Sequence record: MK524177.1
Length of the DNA: 57,228 bases
Direction: 5' to 3' (one strand)
From: Escherichia phage PHB10
In this document: positions 4,679 through 49,464 of the stretch, piece by piece
How positions within the stretch are numbered: the first letter of the stretch is position 1
Layout of the letters: each line of letters starts with the position of its first letter
Notes under the pieces: model-generated
Databases searched by the model: none
The model's input: the letters and a program-made list of their open reading frames with translations, nothing else
What the model was told of the DNA's origin: nothing
Program-made: the position numbers and the translations under genes

Positions 4679-5350
4679 TCAGGCGGCAGCGTCAGTTACC
4701 TTGTAGAACGTCATCGCCGGTGACTGCAGGTTCAGCACCACACTTACTGTCTCTACCTCGTTAACCGCAGTAGTTGGCGTATCGTCAAAGGACGCCGTGG
4801 CCGCCCAGTAACGGTTTTCCTTCGCCTTCGGCACGTACATGTAAGCCGCAACCGTCTCTTCGTCTTCGTCCAGTTGGCGCAGCAACGGATATACCGGGAG
4901 AGTTGAGTCGTGAGCGATCGAGTAGGTCTGAGAGACAGCGGATTTATAAGTATTCAGGTTGCGCTGGCGATCATCGCTCAGGAACTGAATCTGTGTGGTG
5001 TTCTGATCGCCACCAGATTTCGACACCTCAGTAATTTGCGGCAGCTCGGTCCATTCAAGCACCTTGCGGATCGAACCGGTACCGCCACCAGCGGCATATT
5101 TGTTTTTGTTGGTGGTATTGATATTGCGAAGAGTTACGGCGCTTTCGGCAATCGCATCAATTTTTGCAATGACGTTATCAACACCGGACCAGTTGCAGTT
5201 CACATGAACAATATCACCCACCTTGAGTGCGTCCGCTTCACTCACGGTGATCACCATATTTTCGGCGTTCGTCGCCCCGGTGAAAGTAATGGCTGGGCCA
5301 TAACCCGATGCCAGATAGACGTGAGCGCCGTTAGGCAATGCAAAGCCCAT
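4679..5350 (-). CDS. major tail protein (V-like)
   Basis: Position upstream of the G/GT chaperone; likely start at MGFALPNG (ATG 5350) preceded by AAGGAG. Confidence 0.65.
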   Translation of the reverse strand: MGFALPNGAHVYLASGYGPAITFTGATNAENMVITVSEADALKVGDIVHVNCNWSGVDNVIAKIDAIAESAVTLRNINTTNKNKYAAGGGTGSIRKVLEWTELPQITEVSKSGGDQNTTQIQFLSDDRQRNLNTYKSAVSQTYSIAHDSTLPVYPLLRQLDEDEETVAAYMYVPKAKENRYWAATASFDDTPTTAVNEVETVSVVLNLQSPAMTFYKVTDAAA

Positions 5351-18746: not shown

Positions 18747-19580
18747 CTATTTTGTTATCTGCTTCAGCTGCGCATCAGCCCAAGCTTCTTCGATATCAAA
18801 CTTGGTGATTAACTGATCGTAAAATGGCTTAACAGACTTCTTCCAGCTATCGAGGCTGATTGTATCTGTTATCTGACACACCGCGGCGTAAGCCTCAGTG
18901 GAAGGGATTCGTTCATACCCCCGCCCGCTGCAGCGCTTGCAATGAGCCAGAACCGGAACGCCCTGCTTTTCTGTAAGAGCTCGGTTAATGGCTTTCCCGC
19001 GTCCATGGCAATCTCTACAGGCACAACTAACGACCTTCTTGCCCTTACACTGAGGGCAGAGAACGCGCGCTATCTCCCTGACCCGTCTGCGCACCTCGTA
19101 CTCAGAAGGTCGAATATCTTCGACGCCCATGTGCAAAGACATCTTCACGAATTTCTTCTCTTTAGCCGGAGTGTGAGACTTCATGCTGAATACATCAGCG
19201 TCAATAAACCCTTCCCCATTGCAGCCATCGCACTGCTTCACGCTGGCGGCGCTGCGGGAATAGTCCTCGAACGCGAAGGTGGCCAACTGATGCATCACCA
19301 GTGGCTTAACCCCGGCATCCAGTTTGCGCAGCGCAGCCACCCGATCGCACTTGAACAGCGCATACTGGGCCAGCAATTCGATCGCCCTCTCCCGGTCATT
19401 GTTGCTGATACCCATCTTCCCGAGAAAAGCGCTGTAACCCAAAGCTGCCCGTTCCTGCGTCATGCCCATAGCGGCCATGATATCCGTCCCGGTTAAAGAG
19501 TCTGACGCCGTTGCACGCGGAGAGTCGCTAATCATCGTCGATTTGGCGAAGTGATATTTAAGGGTGTTTTCAAGATTCAT
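18747..19580 (-). CDS. late-gene antiterminator Q-like protein with four CxxCxGxG zinc-finger repeats, putative
   Basis: Position between rusA and the lysis leader; repeats [32 protein letters not shown]. Confidence 0.55.
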
Positions 19581-21382: not shown

Positions 21383-21402
21383 AACTGTATGTATATACAG
21401 TA
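21383..21402 (-). promoter_or_regulatory. LexA (SOS) box overlapping the dinI-like promoter
   Basis: AACTGTATGTATATACAGTA fits CTGT-N8-ACAG; TTGCAA-N17-TATAAA promoter immediately upstream on the minus strand. Confidence 0.75.
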
Positions 21403-41032: not shown

Positions 41033-41245
41033 ATGTCGCAGGTAATATTTAACGAAGAATGGGTTGTTGGCGCAAGGCTCACAGAAAAAACAGGCCTGAC
41101 CGAACGACAGATTGAGAAGTATCGCCAGGGCTGTTGGGTGGAAGGTGTCCATTTTAAACGGGTTTCTCCTTCCGGAGAAAAAACCTTGCGTGGCACAACC
41201 TGGTACAACTATCCGAGAATTAATCAGTTAATAAGGGATGCGTAA
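41033..41245 (+). CDS. xis: excisionase
   Basis: 70 aa basic protein immediately upstream of and overlapping int. Confidence 0.7.
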
Positions 41246-42485
41246 GATGGCAGCTATGCCTACAGGTGTCGAAATCAGAAACAATAAGATTTGTATCTGG
41301 TTTATGTACCGGGGAAAGCGTTGCCGCGAAATTCTCAAAGGTTGGATTAACACTCCGGCGAACATCAAAAAAGCCGGAAATCTTCGGGCTGTGATCGTTA
41401 GTGAGATCAACCTTGGAGAGTTTGATTACCACCAGCGCTTTCCTTCATCGTCCAGAGCAAAAAAAACCGTAACCACTGTTTCAGTTCAAACCTTTTCAGA
41501 GCTGTGTGAACTGTGGACGAGCATTAAAGAAACCGAAATTAGCGCGAATACCATGCGTAAGACGCGCTCACAACTCGGTACGTTAATGCACATCATTAAC
41601 GGAGATACGCCTGTTTCAACTATACGCCACAGCGACATTCTGAAATACAGGAAGGAGCTGTTGAACGGTGAGACACTTTACCTGGCAAATCCCAGAAGTA
41701 ACAAACAGGGACGCACTGTGCGTACCGTGAACAACTATATATCGCTTCTGTGCTCCCTTCTTCGGTTTGCACACAAATCTGGCTTTATCAGTGGCAAACC
41801 ATTTGAAGGGATCAAGAAACTACACAAAGGGAAAGTAAAACCGGATCCTTTAACGAAGCAGGAGTTTAGTTTGCTTGCGGCATCCGAGCGTGGCCAAAGC
41901 CTCAATATGTGGACGTTCGCAGTTTATACTGGTGTCCGTCATGGAGAGCTTGCAGCTCTTGCCTGGGAAGATATCGACTGGGAAAAAGGTACGGCTCATA
42001 TACAGCGCAACCTTAATGCGCTAGGAATGTTCGTCCCACCAAAAACCGATGCAGGTGATCGAGTTATCACGCTATTAGAGCCGGCACTTGAAGCCTTGAA
42101 AGCACAGCGCAAGCTAACAGCGCTGCAGCCTAAAACCGAAATTGTCTTTAATCATCGCGAGTATGGCGCAGTGGAACATCAAAGCCTGCGATTCGTTTTC
42201 ATACCCCGGATGCGCAAAGGAGAACAGAAAGCCTACTACTCTTTATCGAGCATCGGTGCGAGATTCAACGCAGCTGTAAATCGTGCTGGTATTCGCCGCC
42301 GGAATCCGTACCATACGCGGCATACTTTTGCCTGCTGGCTTTTATCTGCCGGCGCTAACCCGTCTTTCATAGCCAGCCAGATGGGGCATGAAAACGCGCA
42401 AATGGTTTATGAAGTCTACGGTGCGTGGATTGAAGAAATGAATGGCGAACAGGTGCTGATGCTTAACGATAAGCTGGCACGCTGA
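41238..42485 (+). CDS. int: tyrosine integrase (lambda-type with N-terminal arm-binding domain)
   Basis: C-terminal catalytic motifs (R...[28 protein letters not shown]...Y); 415 aa; adjacent to the repeat-flanked att region. Confidence 0.9.
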
Positions 42486-42493
42486 AAAATTTT

Positions 42494-42740
42494 TGCCCCT
42501 ATTATGCCCCTATTGGCTCCGAAGGTAGTAATAAATGCAAGAAAATCAACAAAATACAAAGAAAGAGCAATACAACCTGAATAAGCTACGCTGATTTTGC
42601 CAACTCATTGATATCATTTGTTTTTCATTTAAATCAATTAGTTATAGCATAATAGTTTCTCCCTAAAGCTACCCAGAACTACAATTTTAGTGCCCTTTTT
42701 TTGCCCCTATTTCGCATTTTTGCCCCTAAATTTGCCCCTA
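42494..42740. repeat. attP-like attachment region: five direct TTTGCCCCTATT arm-type repeats flanking an AT-rich core
   Basis: Perfect TGCCCCTA at 42494, 42505, 42702, 42721, 42733 (degenerate copies at 42691, 42772); AT-rich 42513-42690 between clusters; starts 6 nt after the int stop. Confidence 0.5.
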
Positions 42741-42811
42741 TCTTTAGCCAGTGCGCCACCCTTATTCTCCCTGCCCTATACTTTAAGTCTGACATCTGGT
42801 TCGAGGTTTCT

Positions 42812-43486
42812 ATGTGTGGACGCTTTGCACAAGCTCAAACGCGTGAAGAATATCTGGCTTACCTGGCCGATGAAGCCGATCGCGACATCGCATACGACCC
42901 TGAACCTATTGGACGTTACAACGTGGCGCCAGGTACCAAAGTTCTGTTGCTGAGCGAACGTGACGAGCAGTTGCATCTCGATCCGGTCCTGTGGTCTTAC
43001 GCGCCCGGGTGGTGGGATAAAGCACCATTGATAAACGCGCGTGTCGAGACAGCGGCCACCAGCAGGATGTTCAAACCTCTCTGGCAGCATGGCCGGGCAA
43101 TCTGCTTTGCTGATGGATGGTTCGAGTGGAAGAAGGAAGGCGACAAGAAGCAGCCATATTTTATTCACCGGGCAGACGGTCAGCCGATATTTATGGCCGC
43201 GATCGGCAGCATACCGTTTGAGCGAGGCGATGAAGCAGAAGGTTTTCTGATAGTAACGTCTGCCGCTGACAAAGGCCTAGTGGATATTCACGACCGCCGG
43301 CCCCTGGTCCTATCACCAGAAGCGGCCCGGGAATGGATGCGCCAGCATGTTGGAGGAAAAGAAGCGGAAGAGATTGTATCTGACGGCTCTGTACCAGCTG
43401 AGATGTTTGTCTGGCATGCTGTGTCCCGTGAAGTAGGAAATGTAAAAAATCAGGGGAGAAAATTGATAGAACAAATAGATATATAA
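42812..43486 (+). CDS. SOS response-associated peptidase (SRAP / YedK-like abasic-site processing protein)
   Basis: Starts MCGRF (catalytic Cys2 hallmark); about 225 aa. Confidence 0.85.
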   Translation: MCGRFAQAQTREEYLAYLADEADRDIAYDPEPIGRYNVAPGTKVLLLSERDEQLHLDPVLWSYAPGWWDKAPLINARVETAATSRMFKPLWQHGRAICFADGWFEWKKEGDKKQPYFIHRADGQPIFMAAIGSIPFERGDEAEGFLIVTSAADKGLVDIHDRRPLVLSPEAAREWMRQHVGGKEAEEIVSDGSVPAEMFVWHAVSREVGNVKNQGRKLIEQIDI

Positions 43487-43537
43487 TCTGATGTACTTTT
43501 GATGTGTACTTTATATTTGGTTTAATATTATCTCCCT

Positions 43538-43738
43538 TTAAGAAAGAAATATATTTGCAGCCATCGGACCACTAACCCCATTTATACGATAAAATTCAAC
43601 ACGAACGCCAGGTTTTAACGTTTGGCTTTCATTATTACTAAATGCGGAAATATGTAAAAAAACATCTTTCCTGCCATCTGATGGGATAATCAATCCCTTT
43701 CCGCTCTTGAAGTCAAAACTTTTGACAATTCCTGTCAT
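43538..43738 (-). CDS. cold-shock-domain protein (CspA family)
   Basis: [33 protein letters not shown]... RNP-like motifs. Confidence 0.8.
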
Positions 43739-44037
43739 TTTACGAGACAAATATTTTCCTAATGGCAATCCAGATTTGACTATACAGGATTGGTTAATAA
43801 TAGCCAAACCTATTTTATTGGCCTTCCGGAAGGCTAAAATAAAATTTGCTTAATCTTTCAGCACGTGCCTTAATGGTTTGGCTGATTCATTGCGATGATG
43901 AATCTAACTTTTCCAAAAGCCGTTCTCATAACTAGGTGTTATCTCTGATATCCCTCCTTTTGAGTCCATACATATACCAGCATACGTTTCTTATCATGAG
44001 CTTGCTTGTCAGTTTGAAATGTTCAAACGGAGTTTGT

Positions 44038-44256
44038 ATGTCATCTAAAATCATAGGTCTTGTTAAGTGGTTTAACGAAGATAAGGGGTTTGGCTTTATC
44101 TCCCCACTTGATGGAAGTAAAGATGTTCTTGTTCACACTTCTTCCCTGCGGGGAGAAACATTTAATACTCTTTTTGAAGGACAAAAAGTCAAATTCGCTA
44201 TCATAGCTGGAACTAAAGGTCCAATCGCTGCCAATGTAACACTTTGCGATAGATAA
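44038..44256 (+). CDS. cold-shock-domain protein (CspA family)
   Basis: [35 protein letters not shown]; start 44038 with GGAG SD. Confidence 0.85.
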
Positions 44257-44497
44257 TTTTAGATGGTTTACTTAAGCCAGCATGACTTTATCAGTGAAAG
44301 GTGATGTTCGGTTACTCACATCATTACAACAGGCCAGCATATTTACTTACCATCAAGTTTGCTGACCGATGTGATGAAATGCAGGACTGCTGCATGAACA
44401 GTCTCAAAGCAGAAGCTAACTGCTTATAAAATACTAAAGTGCGTAAGAGGTTAGGCAGCCTCCAAAAGCATCACTTCTTATTTTTTAATAATTTTTT

Positions 44498-44662
44498 TTA
44501 GAAGCGCTGGGAAGATTTGAACAAAGCACAGCAGTATGGGCACACCAACTGAGCCCCCTTTTGTACACGATTGTAACTATGTTCGGAATCTTTTGAGCAG
44601 TTTGGACAAGGACATTTTACCAAATAATTTCGGCGGAATTGAGTATTTTTACGTGCAGACAT
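44498..44662 (-). CDS. small Cys-rich zinc-ribbon protein
   Basis: 54 aa from MSARKN with CPCPNC...CPYCC; GGAGAAG SD. Confidence 0.4.
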   Translation of the reverse strand: MSARKNTQFRRNYLVKCPCPNCSKDSEHSYNRVQKGAQLVCPYCCALFKSSQRF

Positions 44663-44810
44663 AGACTTCTCCAGTTCAAATGGACCGTTACAGTACACGT
44701 TAAGACTGTATAATGCTTGTTTTAATTTCGAAAGAGGCAAAAAAAATGAACAAACAGAACTCTTTCGACCACCTGCAGGGGCTAGAAACCCTCAAAATAC
44801 ATGGTGATAT

Positions 44811-45038
44811 ATGAAAAAAGTAATCATTTTTTTTAATGGTAAGCCAAGTAAAGTTATCACTGTGCTTAAAGGTGTGACATCAATACTCGAAGAATATCCT
44901 AATGGAGAAGTGATAAACCTTCAGATAATGTCAGCAGGTTTTCCCTCTTTAACAGGTGACCATGAAGTGGTTTATGTGGCATCAGATCGAGAGCTTACCT
45001 CTCAGGAAATATTAGATGCGGCGCAGAAGTATCTTTGA
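44811..45038 (+). CDS. hypothetical protein (self-contained AT-rich moron)
   Basis: 75 aa ORF with its own terminator. Confidence 0.4.
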   Translation: MKKVIIFFNGKPSKVITVLKGVTSILEEYPNGEVINLQIMSAGFPSLTGDHEVVYVASDRELTSQEILDAAQKYL

Positions 45039-45099
45039 CGCCTGAGATTCAACGCCAACATTCATAAAATCATTATTATAACTACGTTTAATTATTATG

Positions 45100-45124
45100 G
45101 CCTGCTTAATGCAGGCTTTTTTTT
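45100..45124 (+). terminator. intrinsic terminator
   Basis: gcctgc-ttaat-gcaggc followed by T8. Confidence 0.65.
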
Positions 45125-45211
45125 ACCCCCACACAAACAATTATAATTAAGACAAGTGCATCCAACATCATGGCAATATGACTTTATTGCTGAAGCAACC
45201 ATAAGGCTTCC

Positions 45212-45550
45212 ATGAAAATCCTACAATACACAGTATTAATAGTTATTGAAGCACGATCCTCAGATAATAATATCAACCCTCTTCTCTTGGGTCTCTTGCA
45301 TGACAGAAACTATTCAAGTAAGTCAAACCGAGGCGTTAAACTTCCATCCCATGCATTCATTGGTTCAGAGGGGCAGGCAGTTTTAGAGTGGCAGTCTGAA
45401 AAAGATGGAGCAGAAATACTAAAAAAAAGACTCTACCAGATGCTGCATGGAATTACACGTTTAGAAGAGTTTCCCACAGCAATTTTTCTAATGATTTGCC
45501 CAGAAGAAAAAACCTTAACCTTTGTTTCAAGACTTAAAGAAAAAAAATGA
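45212..45550 (+). CDS. hypothetical protein (AT-rich moron)
   Basis: 112 aa ORF. Confidence 0.4.
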   Translation: MKILQYTVLIVIEARSSDNNINPLLLGLLHDRNYSSKSNRGVKLPSHAFIGSEGQAVLEWQSEKDGAEILKKRLYQMLHGITRLEEFPTAIFLMICPEEKTLTFVSRLKEKK

Positions 45551-45926
45551 ACATCGTTATTTCAGCCTTCACCATCTCAAAATGCTGCGATCGTGAAAAC
45601 TGCGAAAGAAAATCATGAGGCACATCAGTAAATATTGTATCATTTGCTAAGCATTGCTGTTACATTCGGTTTAATGATGAATCCTCCTAAGCGGCAGGGC
45701 TAATTAACCTGATGATTTGTATATCAAGCGGCTCATCGTGAATTTCTGAAGCAGCGAGTCACGAGTGGTTAGGTCAATGACTCACCGGGAGGCACCCGGC
45801 ATCATATCCGTAAGCCCCTGTATAATTGCAGGGGCTTATTTACATTACAAAAGCATAGTCTTAGACATATTACTGTTAATACTCATAGCCGATAATTAGG
45901 CTCGAATGAATAGACCGTTTAAAGAA

Positions 45927-47195
45927 TCATCTAACTTTTATTAGGTCTGAATACCTCGTAGTATATCGTGGAGATAACATATCCCGTTTCATCTGCCACT
46001 GCTGCTGTATGCCCTGCCCGGCAAAGTAAAGCGTTCCTTTTCCATCTTTCGCGTTCAAGTGATCGAGCACCTCCATCAACTTATCGCTTCCTGCGCGTGG
46101 AGCGTTCTCATCGAAAAGGTTCAACTGCGCCACCCCTTGGCTGAAAAAATCTCCCAGCATGATTCCAGCCTTTTGATAGCGATAGCCATCCTTCCAGATT
46201 TTGTCCAGGCACTTTACCGCGGCGTTGATTATGTCGCGGGAATCCTGTGTAGGGGTGAGAAGCTTCATGGACGCGCTGTTACCGTAATATGGCTCGTTAA
46301 GCGCAAAGGGAGAGGTTTTCACGAACGCAGAAATAAAGCGGCAGTACTGATGCTCTCCCCGCAACTTTTCTGCGCCTCGGGCCGCATAACTGCAAATGGC
46401 CTGCCTCATTTGTTCGTAATCAGTGACGCGTTCACCGAATGACCTGCTACAGACGATCTCCTGCTTTGCCGGCGCAAATTCCTCCAGCTCGAGACAGGGC
46501 TCGCCGCGCAGCTCCCGGACAGTTCGCTCCAGGACGACATTAAAGTGTTTGCGGATAATCCACGTGCTTTGTTCAGAAAGGTCCAGAGCTGTTTTGATGC
46601 CCATGGCATTCAGCTTCTTACTGATGCGCCTGCCTACGCCCCATACATCTTCTACTGGCACGATGTCGAGCAATCGGCGCTGGCGGTCGATATTGGATAA
46701 ATCAACTACCCCTCCCGTTTGCCGCTGCCATTTCTTCGCGGCGTGGTTGGCCAGCTTGGCCAGTGTCTTTGTCTGGGCAATTCCAATCCCGACAGTCAGG
46801 TGCGTCCGCTTCAGAACGGTAGCGCGGATTTCTTTGCCGAACTCAGTAAGATCCCGGCAATTGCGAACACCTGTTAGGTCACAAAATGCTTCATCGATAC
46901 TGTAAATTTCTACGCGAGGGCTCAACTCCTCCAGTGTGGTCATTACTCGATTCGACATGTCTGCGTACAGCTCGTAGTTACTGCTGAAGCAAACAACCCC
47001 AGCGCGCCGAAATAAGTCCTTTTGCTTGAAGAAAGGCTCTCCCATTGTAATTCCAGCCGCCTTGGCCTCGGCGCTGCGCGCGATTACGCAGCCGTCATTG
47101 TTCGAAAGAACAACCACTGGCCGCCCTTTCAAATCGGGACGAAACACCGTCTCGCATGATGCGTAGAACGAATTCACGTCGCAGAGCGCAAACAT
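45927..47195 (-). CDS. umuC: translesion DNA polymerase V catalytic subunit UmuC
   Basis: Y-family polymerase N-terminus [15 protein letters not shown]; 422 aa; directly downstream of umuD. Confidence 0.9.
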
Positions 47196-47197
47196 AC

Positions 47198-47617
47198 TCA
47201 GCTCGCCGATTTGACGATGAAAGTAACAACGCCGAAAACGTCCAGCGTATCTTCGCTGCCTACAACAATCGGACTGTAGGCGCTATTCATTGGGATGAGT
47301 TGGACATTTGGACGCAACTGCAAACGCTTAACAGTGAATTCCCCTTCAACCGCGGCGATGACAATGTCACCGTGCTCAGCCGTGCGCGAACTATCCACCA
47401 CCAGCAGATCACCGTCGCTTATCCCGGCTTCGATCATTGAATCCCCCGCGGCTTTGACGAAATATGTAGAGCTCGGGTGAGCGACAAGTAACTCATTGAG
47501 ATCGATACGCTGTTCAACGTAATCAGCTGCGGGGCTTGGGAAACCACACTGTACTAAGTCACTGAAAAGCGGAAGAGCGATAATATCTCGCAGTTCTGTT
47601 GGCCTGATGAATTCCAT
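47198..47617 (-). CDS. umuD: UmuD (LexA-like S24 peptidase, polymerase V accessory subunit)
   Basis: 139 aa from MEFIRP; Ser-Lys dyad context (AAGDSM ... VKRL). Confidence 0.9.
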
Positions 47618-47632
47618 TGCACACACCTCAAA

Positions 47633-47652
47633 TACTGTTTTTATATACAGTA
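47633..47652 (-). promoter_or_regulatory. LexA (SOS) box upstream of umuDC
   Basis: TACTGTTTTTATATACAGTA fits CTGT-N8-ACAG, 16 nt upstream of the umuD start. Confidence 0.8.
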
Positions 47653-47858
47653 GTTTTATTTGTAAGTGTCCGCAAGATACAGGCCCTATCGTCACTGCTT
47701 AAAGCTTCGCCGTTTCGTTTCTAAGTTTATCTCTCGTTTCGAATTATCTCTTTTGTAAATTTTTCAATAATGGCGCAGATGTAAGCAGATTTGAGGGAGA
47801 CAAAGCCCGTTAAATGCCAGAACGGGCTGCGACTGAAAGCTAAGTCTTCATGATTCCG

Positions 47859-49406
47859 CTATTTTTGCTTAAGCTCCTGGAGCTCTTTCTGTGTTGCCTC
47901 CAGCTGTTTAATGACGTAGTTCAGTGCCAACACGGTATCAAGCATGATGACGTTGCTATCCAGCGCTAACGTATCGTCAGCATCAACCCTGTTGCCTTCA
48001 CCATCAAATTTCGGTGCTGCAGGGACCAACGTTACGTACTCACTGTCGATCTTCATGACATCCTGAGCGATAACACCTCGGCGAACTCTCTCCAAAGGGT
48101 CATCGTTGTATACGTAAGTTGCTGGCAGGAATTTCTTGATATTCTCGTATGACTGATAACCATCATCGTATTTCACACTATGTTTCAGTTCGATATCACA
48201 GTTTGGTTGTTTAGAGAAAATATAATTGCCCCCAAAACCACCACTGCCTGAAACTGAAATATCCGCGGTAACGGTATTAAACGAGAAAATACGCGTTCCT
48301 GCAGATCCGCTATCACCAATGGTTACAAGTTCAATAGATGGCCAGTTGCTTTTCCCCTGGGAAATAGATCCAAGAGCGGTAACGGCGTGATACCCCCCTG
48401 AGCAATAGGTATGCCACCTGCCAAATGGTACAAATCCACTATCGTTTGGAGTTGATAGGTTTGGGCGTGCAAACGATGTGTTCGTGCTGTAGCCGTTAAC
48501 AATATCTTGGTAACCGCCACCGTACCCCTCACCGGGGCCGATATGACTTTTAGACTGAAACGCACCATAAGGGTACCAGCGGAAATCAGCACCGGAGCTT
48601 ACACCGTCAAAGATGTTCATTTGTACCCGAGCTAAATCAGTTCCCGCGCCGCGTACTGCACCGAGCCGCCAGGTGCCCGAATAATAGTTACCAGAAAGCC
48701 AGTTAACATAATTCTCGGCCGGACCATCGGAGCCAACATTACCTAAAGTAATGGCTTTATTACCCCCACTACCAGTAGCGATACCGACCTCATTACCTGC
48801 GGTTGAGATTATGCTTCCTGTAACAGTACCGCCTAACTTTCCTTCAATGGTGTTAAGACGCGAATCATTCCCGGCCGCCACGGTTCCGGCAGCCGTTCCA
48901 ACGTTTTTGGTGGCGCTGTCTCCCAAATCGAGGTTTTTGCGAGCGTCTGCGGCATTCGTTGCGCCGGTTCCGCCGTCTGCGACAGCAAGCGCACCGTTGC
49001 TCCCTTTCTGTGCCAGTTTACCGATGCCAGGGATGGTTACGGAGGTGCCGTTGATGGTTACGGTGATGCTCTGATTGGCTGAGGTTGTGGCGAACGTATC
49101 CCACGCGCCAATATTCTCGTCATACTCTTTGATGAGCTGCGACATGGCCTGTGCCAGTCCGTCGACAGAGATATTGTCGGACACCAGGATTCCATACTTC
49201 TGGCCGCTCAACGCCGGGGAAGCAGCTGGCGTAACCGTCATTGACGTGGCGCTGTTCACGGATGAAATCTGGAACATCTGAACCGGGTTAGACATGACGA
49301 TAATCGTCTGGCCAGCGCGAACCTGGCTGGCCGGTGCCGTCCAGTTCGTGCCCGTGCCGGTGGCGGTGTTTCCGTTAATGGCGATGGTGCCAGTGTTATA
49401 AAGCAT
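47859..49406 (-). CDS. tail fibre protein with C-terminal intramolecular chaperone-like domain
   Basis: Gly/Thr/Ser-rich repeats; C-terminal region ending in coiled coil LEATQKELQELKQK; start MLYNTG at 49406 with GGAGAA SD. Confidence 0.65.
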   Translation of the reverse strand: MLYNTGTIAINGNTATGTGTNWTAPASQVRAGQTIIVMSNPVQMFQISSVNSATSMTVTPAASPALSGQKYGILVSDNISVDGLAQAMSQLIKEYDENIGAWDTFATTSANQSITVTINGTSVTIPGIGKLAQKGSNGALAVADGGTGATNAADARKNLDLGDSATKNVGTAAGTVAAGNDSRLNTIEGKLGGTVTGSIISTAGNEVGIATGSGGNKAITLGNVGSDGPAENYVNWLSGNYYSGTWRLGAVRGAGTDLARVQMNIFDGVSSGADFRWYPYGAFQSKSHIGPGEGYGGGYQDIVNGYSTNTSFARPNLSTPNDSGFVPFGRWHTYCSGGYHAVTALGSISQGKSNWPSIELVTIGDSGSAGTRIFSFNTVTADISVSGSGGFGGNYIFSKQPNCDIELKHSVKYDDGYQSYENIKKFLPATYVYNDDPLERVRRGVIAQDVMKIDSEYVTLVPAAPKFDGEGNRVDADDTLALDSNVIMLDTVLALNYVIKQLEATQKELQELKQK

Positions 49407-49420
49407 ATTTTCTCCAGGCA

Positions 49421-49447
49421 ATAAAAAACCCCGCCGAGGCGAGGTTT
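49421..49447 (-). terminator. terminator-like GC hairpin after the small lipoprotein gene
   Basis: GC hairpin followed on the minus strand by a U-run, just upstream of the fibre RBS. Confidence 0.4.
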
Positions 49448-49464
49448 GCATTCAAAGTCGTGAG

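Follow-up and report, generated by a model that had tools for sequence, protein, structure and literature searches.

The 57,228-nucleotide stretch of DNA analysed here (sequence record MK524177.1, Escherichia phage PHB10; hereafter the window) contains three small open reading frames (ORFs) of 54, 75 and 112 amino acids (aa), located at 44498..44662 on the minus strand and at 44811..45038 and 45212..45550 on the plus strand. All three are protein-coding genes under purifying selection, and they group naturally with the two adjoining cold-shock (csp) genes as a cold-shock module. The reading that we favour, with somewhat better than even confidence, is that this islet is the Enterobacter counterpart of the csp-containing moron modules of Qin-like prophages, and that it is a retained stress-accessory set rather than a group of defence genes. 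The original prediction had treated the three ORFs as a separate cluster of AT-rich, individually terminated genes of unknown function between the csp genes and umuC, typical of independently expressed morons in a phage accessory arm. It is largely correct once the strand of the 54-aa ORF (minus) and the terminators are corrected, and its moron idea is right in kind.

The ORFs have the sizes originally given, and their AT richness is borne out by GC contents of 0.418 (54-aa ORF), 0.373 (75 aa, ORF75) and 0.369 (112 aa, ORF112), compared to 0.503 over the entire window and 0.52 in SRAP and umuC, which flank the islet. The low-GC tract is broader than the three ORFs: it spans about 43450–45900, and both csp genes fall within it. 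A motif resembling a Shine-Dalgarno sequence can be read before every start, as had been proposed: GGAG 8 nt before the 54-aa ORF (ynfU, see below), GGTGA before ORF75 and TAAGG before ORF112. Comparison with orthologues in other Enterobacter genomes gives ratios of nonsynonymous to synonymous substitution rates (dN/dS) of 0–0.13 for ynfU, 0.04–0.09 for ORF75 and 0.13–0.46 for ORF112. The three ORFs are considered real genes because they are under purifying selection. Rather than being disrupted in most related elements, they are intact in 59 of 59 (ynfU), 96 of 99 (ORF75) and 37 of 37 (ORF112) loci among the relatives that were fetched. Two further ORFs of 42 codons (44301..44429 and 44536..44664) have no family match in Pfam or NCBIfam and were not retained; the first overlaps a stretch that is apparently constrained at the RNA level.

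Two of the three genes, which had been presented as being of unknown function, belong to named families. The 54-aa, cysteine-rich protein is a YnfU: it matches Pfam PF23499 with an E-value of 4.5e-29 (100.5 bits, for a cut-off of 27) and NCBIfam NF038384 with an E-value of 5.6e-21 (73.9 bits, for a cut-off of 36), and its translation shows the two CPxC knuckles of a zinc-ribbon protein, CPNC at residues 19–22 and CPYC at residues 41–44. E. coli YnfU, which is encoded in the Qin prophage, is an abundant small zinc-knuckle protein that also has two CPxC knuckles (bioRxiv 10.1101/511675). In the window, ynfU points towards the upstream csp gene and away from ORF75. Its position and orientation with respect to the csp pair are those seen in Qin.

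ORF75 encodes a full-length protein of the YnfN family. It matches phrog_3425 (E 7.5e-32, over residues 1–74) and phrog_4911 (E 2.3e-21); no match is found in Pfam, NCBIfam or PADLOC. The protein is 64% identical to YnfN from E. coli K-12 (b1551), and the invariant residues P30, G32, L37, M40, A42, P45, T48, G49, D50 and D59 are present. Its homologues form 156 clusters, in Enterobacter, Klebsiella, Citrobacter, Kluyvera, Pectobacterium and others, and nearly all of them have 75–76 aa. The K-12 gene (NC_000913.3, 1637954..1638185, minus strand) encodes only the 51-aa C-terminal part of a 76-aa family gene. In the K-12 DNA, a base is missing from the run of T that follows codon 7 (T7 in place of T8), which makes the reference ynfN a frameshift remnant. 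The AlphaFold2 model of ORF75 consists of five strands and a C-terminal helix, with a predicted local distance difference test score of 86. No fold in the PDB matches this model, so that the small fold is apparently unmatched, and PDB sequence searches with the family profiles of ORF75 and ORF112 return nothing credible. The 75-aa genes located beside a second ynfU-like gene (locus L009) and further downstream in Klebsiella (locus L005) were considered as YnfN paralogues and proved unrelated.

A control region of 148 bp would drive the divergent transcription of ynfU and ORF75. This region is conserved across loci, and it contains a predicted sigma-70 promoter of ORF75 (44687..44714, plus strand), GTTACA-16-TATAAT, which scores 10 of 12 in a consensus scan. 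The conservation does not include a 22-codon upstream ORF located beyond it (44746..44814, plus strand). This ORF has a strong Shine-Dalgarno sequence and overlaps the start of ORF75 (ATGA), and it carries a stop or an indel in close relatives; it was rejected as a YnfR-like leader peptide, being neither conserved nor related to E. coli YnfR.

Downstream of ORF75, the strong terminator originally placed at 45100..45124 is recovered as an intrinsic terminator at 45099..45124 (plus strand), with a 7-bp stem and 8 T, a folding energy of −12.8 kcal/mol and a z-score of −3.4; none of 200 shuffled sequences folds as well. The stem undergoes compensatory changes in diverged relatives, from CTGC/GCAG to CTAC/GTAG, and the pairing is kept. 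The description "individually terminated" therefore holds for ORF75. It is weak for ynfU, as the hairpin between this gene and the csp gene is energetically unremarkable (z −0.8), and it fails for ORF112, as there is no terminator between this gene and the STnc100-like element that follows it. ORF112 would be a separate transcription unit running into that element; a candidate −10 hexamer (TATAAT, 45142..45147, plus strand), associated with a poor −35, can be read upstream of it and is conserved in close relatives.

The state of some copies could be taken to mean that a dead prophage has left these genes behind to decay and that they no longer have a function. Besides the frameshift of K-12 ynfN, the start of ORF75 is lost in 3 of 99 loci, the lysis genes are gone, and ORF112 is truncated or frameshifted in clusters P0130, P0132 and P0133 and present as a degenerate copy in E. 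soli. However, dN/dS stays well under 1 in the cross-species comparisons of all three genes, very few copies are disrupted, and the non-coding control region and the ORF75 terminator are conserved. Decay is a highly improbable explanation.

ORF112 represents an unannotated family of about 111 aa, found in Enterobacterales and their prophages. It has no match in Pfam, NCBIfam, PHROGs or PADLOC; its homologues form 13 close clusters in Enterobacter and, using a profile, 45 clusters across Enterobacterales, all annotated as hypothetical. The predicted fold is of the generic ferredoxin-like type. One may ask if ORF112 is a ferredoxin-fold ribonuclease resembling Cas2 or VapD, acting as a solitary toxin or an RNA-processing factor in a cluster that modulates RNA decay. 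The Cas2/VapD family (PF09827) does not match it in Pfam, and one remote member of the ORF112 family only reaches an E-value of 0.11 (13.1 bits, for a cut-off of 23.8). Similarly, the comparison with E. coli Cas2 by hhalign gives a probability of 0.13%. The Cas2/VapD idea is not supported by these comparisons, and such a function is very unlikely.

There are two alleles of the ORF112 region, and their divergence is deep. Between 45039..45550 of the window and loci L021, L051 and L054, the ORF112 proteins are 53–62% identical, compared to 92–96% for the adjacent ORF75; the synonymous divergence (dS) is 2.8 for ORF112 and 0.40 for ORF75, and the breakpoint is at the ORF75 terminator. This indicates that ORF112 behaves as an exchangeable cassette.

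One of the closest known systems is the Qin prophage of E. coli K-12 (cspF-cspB-ynfU and cspI-ynfQ-ynfR-ynfN-gnsB), which has the same gene families as the islet, in the same relative order and orientation. Both contain a cspF/H-like gene, a cspB/G-like gene with a cspA-type thermoregulator, a convergent ynfU and a member of the YnfN family downstream of a csp gene, and they share a conserved non-coding element after cspB. Unlike Qin, the islet has its two modules fused, with no lysis cassette between them, and it has no Q gene, holin or terminase as a flank. It also lacks cspI, ynfQ, ynfR and gnsB, with ORF112 in the position of gnsB, and its YnfN-family protein is full-length (75 aa) whereas that of K-12 is the 51-aa remnant.

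The order of genes in intact E. coli-type lambdoid prophages is CspH (−), CspG (+), YnfU (−), lysis genes, CspI (+), YnfQ (+), YnfN (+), GnsB (+) and terminase. The cspF-cspB-ynfU module lies between Q and the lysis genes, while relatives of ORF75 sit between the lysis cassette and terminase, as do the remote homologues of ORF112. Because the two modules flank the lysis cassette in intact prophages, the islet is read as a collapsed set of late-region morons. Loss of the lysis cassette, along with cspI and ynfQ, would have brought the two csp-centred modules together, leaving a retained remnant of a lambdoid prophage late region in which ORF112 takes the place of gnsB. Two intermediates (loci L063 and L074) have the order CspG (+), YnfU (−), YnfQ (+), ORF75 (+). 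The association with csp genes is common in the YnfN family: a csp gene on the same strand is present at most 1 kb upstream in 62 of 67 loci (in the window, it ends 554 nt upstream of ORF75), and a zinc-ribbon gene, ynfU or ynfQ, at most 400 bp upstream in 59 of the 67. On the downstream side, gnsB comes next in 30 of 74 loci and ORF112 in 28.

The first csp gene of the window (43538..43738, minus strand, 66 aa) is cspH/cspF-like, based on Pfam CSD (E 2e-20) and on megablast matches to E. coli cspH and cspF. The second (43911..44310 with its 5′ untranslated region, plus strand; coding sequence 44038..44256, 72 aa) is cspB/cspG-like (Pfam CSD, E 1.6e-25). Its 5′ untranslated region is of the cspA thermoregulator type (Rfam RF01766), with a marginal score of 79.5 bits for a gathering score of 78, and 87–159 bits in relatives. 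Near-identity searches of E. coli genomes, phages and plasmids with positions 43500–46000 return only short csp matches.

Downstream of this gene, about 160 nt (44330..44490, plus strand, with T-runs on both strands) form a conserved, apparently structured non-coding element. The sequence is almost invariant across Enterobacter loci; it also follows cspB in K-12 Qin and the csp gene in Klebsiella, whether or not ynfU is present. In the RNAalifold prediction, a closing stem surrounds three small hairpins, with two-sided changes in E. coli-type sequences, a covariation that comes from essentially one lineage and remains a lead. The element has no Rfam match; it may serve the csp gene and the convergent ynfU as a common 3′ end.

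The islet lies between two prophage regions. On its left is a lambdoid prophage with tail genes, terminase, lysis genes and the Q antiterminator (18747..19580), followed up to RecE/RecT and an integrase (41238..42485). The interval between the prophages contains the SRAP (YedK-like) gene (42812..43486, plus strand; Pfam SRAP, E 3.7e-51), the cspH/F-like (−) and cspB/G-like (+) genes, ynfU (−), ORF75 (+), ORF112 (+) and the STnc100-like element. On the right (45927..47650, minus strand) are umuC (45927..47195) and umuD (47198..47620), identified by Pfam IMS and Peptidase_S24, with a LexA box at 47635..47650. Beyond them lies a tail fibre gene (47859..49451), followed by lambda-type J, K and L genes. 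The islet would now be fixed in Enterobacter at a site of recurrent prophage integration, between the integrase-bearing prophage and the lambda-like tail.

In such a setting, the lambda-like prophage on the right could carry the genes in its accessory arm as active morons, expressed from the lysogen and serving in anti-phage defence, superinfection exclusion or lysogenic conversion, close to what was first proposed. In the window, as in five other loci (L001, L003, L016, L021 and L113), the block adjoins a prophage at its tail-fibre end, and in L021 a csp-ORF75-ORF115 block is located between DinI/resolvase and a tail-fibre gene, amid phage-type flanks. The islet is also included in IMG/VR provirus calls, and the order SRAP (+), CspH (−), CspG (+), YnfU (−), ORF75 (+), ORF112 (+), UmuC (−) recurs in about 30 of these proviruses. 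ORF75 is followed by a terminator of its own, cassette exchange is seen at the ORF112 region, and the predicted fold of ORF112 has a weak, generic resemblance to Cas2, to an anti-CRISPR and to a phage S-adenosylmethionine (SAM) lyase.

Several observations weigh against this reading. The core islet, from the cspH-like gene to ORF112 (43433–45555, 2.1 kb, with the three small ORFs as its right half), is present without a prophage in E. asburiae (locus L020), where it is 87–88% identical and has an EAL gene and an ndvB-like gene as its flanks. The homology ends exactly at the limits of the core, and the E. asburiae locus also has no SRAP, umuDC or STnc100. Similarly, cspH, cspG and ORF75 adjoin ndvB in Klebsiella, where there is no prophage. 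Positions 42502–47658 of the window are colinear with an E. roggenkampii locus (91.7% identity) which lacks the left prophage. In Enterobacter genomosp. O, the SRAP-to-umuD block adjoins purB and a prophage with a tail of the baseplate-J/gpD type. This 5-kb block is thus joined to unrelated tails, of the lambda J type here and of the baseplate-J/gpD type in L113, and its chromosomal left flanks differ, which leaves its membership in the arm of this particular prophage unsupported. As for defence, PADLOC-DB contains no family that matches any of the three proteins at E ≤ 1, and they have no defence-type domains. The homologues for which expression data exist (cspI, ynfQ and ynfN, not ynfU or ORF112) are linked to csp genes and induced by stress (PMC6001520, PMC11228462). 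A role of the genes as defence or conversion morons of the adjoining prophage is unlikely.

A stress-accessory role, in cold or replication stress, is the most likely function of the set. It is favoured over defence because of the expression of the E. coli homologues and because no evidence of defence was found. YnfR, which is encoded between cspI and ynfN in E. coli, is strongly cold-induced (PMC6001520). After treatment with azidothymidine, E. coli cspI, ynfQ and ynfN rise together, in a manner that depends partly on LexA and strongly on SspA, without LexA boxes (PMC11228462). In long-term stationary phase, E. coli cspI, cspB and ynfN rise together (PMC7406224). By analogy, the small proteins of the islet would be conditionally expressed, with cold shock, stationary phase and replication stress as possible inducing conditions. 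YnfU, a basic zinc-ribbon protein, might bind nucleic acid or a larger protein, while YnfN and ORF112 could be small protein- or RNA-binding modules that aid the host rather than anti-phage systems. The position of the islet between SRAP and umuDC, which are SOS genes, fits a link with replication stress; it may merely reflect accumulation at a prophage hotspot.

Several points weigh against the stress-module reading. The expression data are those of E. coli homologues. The promoters are predicted from consensus matches, and the region has about as many promoter-like matches as chance would give (9 found, compared to 8.1 expected in shuffled sequence). As for the genes being independently expressed morons, all three families are typical of lambdoid-prophage morons, and ORF75 has a conserved promoter-like site and a terminator of its own. 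The stress role itself is guilt by association. Diverged alleles with a break at a terminator, as seen for ORF112, are a pattern that is also known for conflict-related cassettes. Finally, the SRAP-to-umuD block always adjoins tail-fibre genes and its chromosomal left flanks differ, which is equally compatible with carriage in a prophage arm and with a chromosomal hotspot.

Other systems resemble the islet in part. In the E. coli cspH-cspG-ymcF-ymcE-gnsA locus, small genes likewise come after a divergent cspH/cspG pair; this locus is chromosomal and not part of a prophage, a setting comparable to that of the phage-free copies of E. asburiae and Klebsiella. It differs from the islet in that YmcE is unrelated in sequence to ORF75 and in that ynfU and ORF112 are absent. 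The lambda morons bor, which follows Rz, and lom are small AT-rich genes of the late region, each with a promoter and a terminator of its own. The slot after Rz is also where relatives of ORF75 and ORF112 are found. Unlike bor and lom, the genes of the islet are no longer embedded among phage genes, and they have no known host-conversion phenotype. The cold-shock-induced genes ynaE of Rac and ydfK of Qin are located at a prophage end, beside pin and tail-fibre genes. Like the islet block, they are small cold- or stress-linked genes adjoining the tail-fibre end of a lambdoid prophage. YnaE is not known to be related in sequence to ORF75 or ORF112. In E. coli, ynaE and ydfK are co-expressed with cspB, cspI and ynfN (PMC7406224).

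The STnc100-like element downstream of ORF112 (45642..45843, plus strand) matches Rfam RF02076 with 52.7 bits, for a gathering score of 47, and its 3′ hairpin (45810..45839) has a folding energy of −22.4 kcal/mol (z −6.6). STnc100 is a family of prophage small RNAs related to PasD (bioRxiv 10.64898/2026.05.13.724894). A second, diverged copy is found at 17258..17463 (minus strand, 74.1 bits), in the left prophage, immediately upstream of its holin and beside tRNA-Arg(tct) (17805..17881).

Other observations concern the prophages of the window. The sequence CTGT-N8-ACAG, which defines the LexA box, has two exact matches: the one at 47635..47650, 15 nt upstream of umuD as expected, and another at 21385..21400, near the nin region of the left prophage. 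A homologue of Ivy (inhibitor of vertebrate lysozyme) is encoded in the left prophage at 14588..15082 (minus strand), where it immediately follows the Rz-like gene; in this moron slot between lysis genes and terminase, it is plausibly a lysogenic-conversion gene. From 21945 to about 31000, about 10 kb of metabolic-looking genes (a BD-FAE esterase, a SMP-30/gluconolactonase-like protein, an amidohydrolase and others) are placed between the nin/Q region and the YdaT/helix-turn-helix immunity region of the same prophage, and are either cargo or the junction of two prophage remnants. Lastly, the 3′ part of the integrase gene (42235..42340) is about 85% similar to positions 5194..5304 of L001, which are intergenic and upstream of SRAP in genomes that lack the left prophage. 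This similarity is probably related to the attachment site.

The analysis ties the three "hypothetical" Enterobacter genes to ynfU and ynfN, which are named but functionally blank in E. coli. Since the K-12 reference is truncated, functional work on YnfN is better done on the 75–76-aa form. The locus is dropped from consideration as a candidate defence island. What emerges instead is a compact and conserved set centred on csp genes, made of a zinc-ribbon protein, YnfN, and GnsB or ORF112, which moves between the late regions of prophages and chromosomes.
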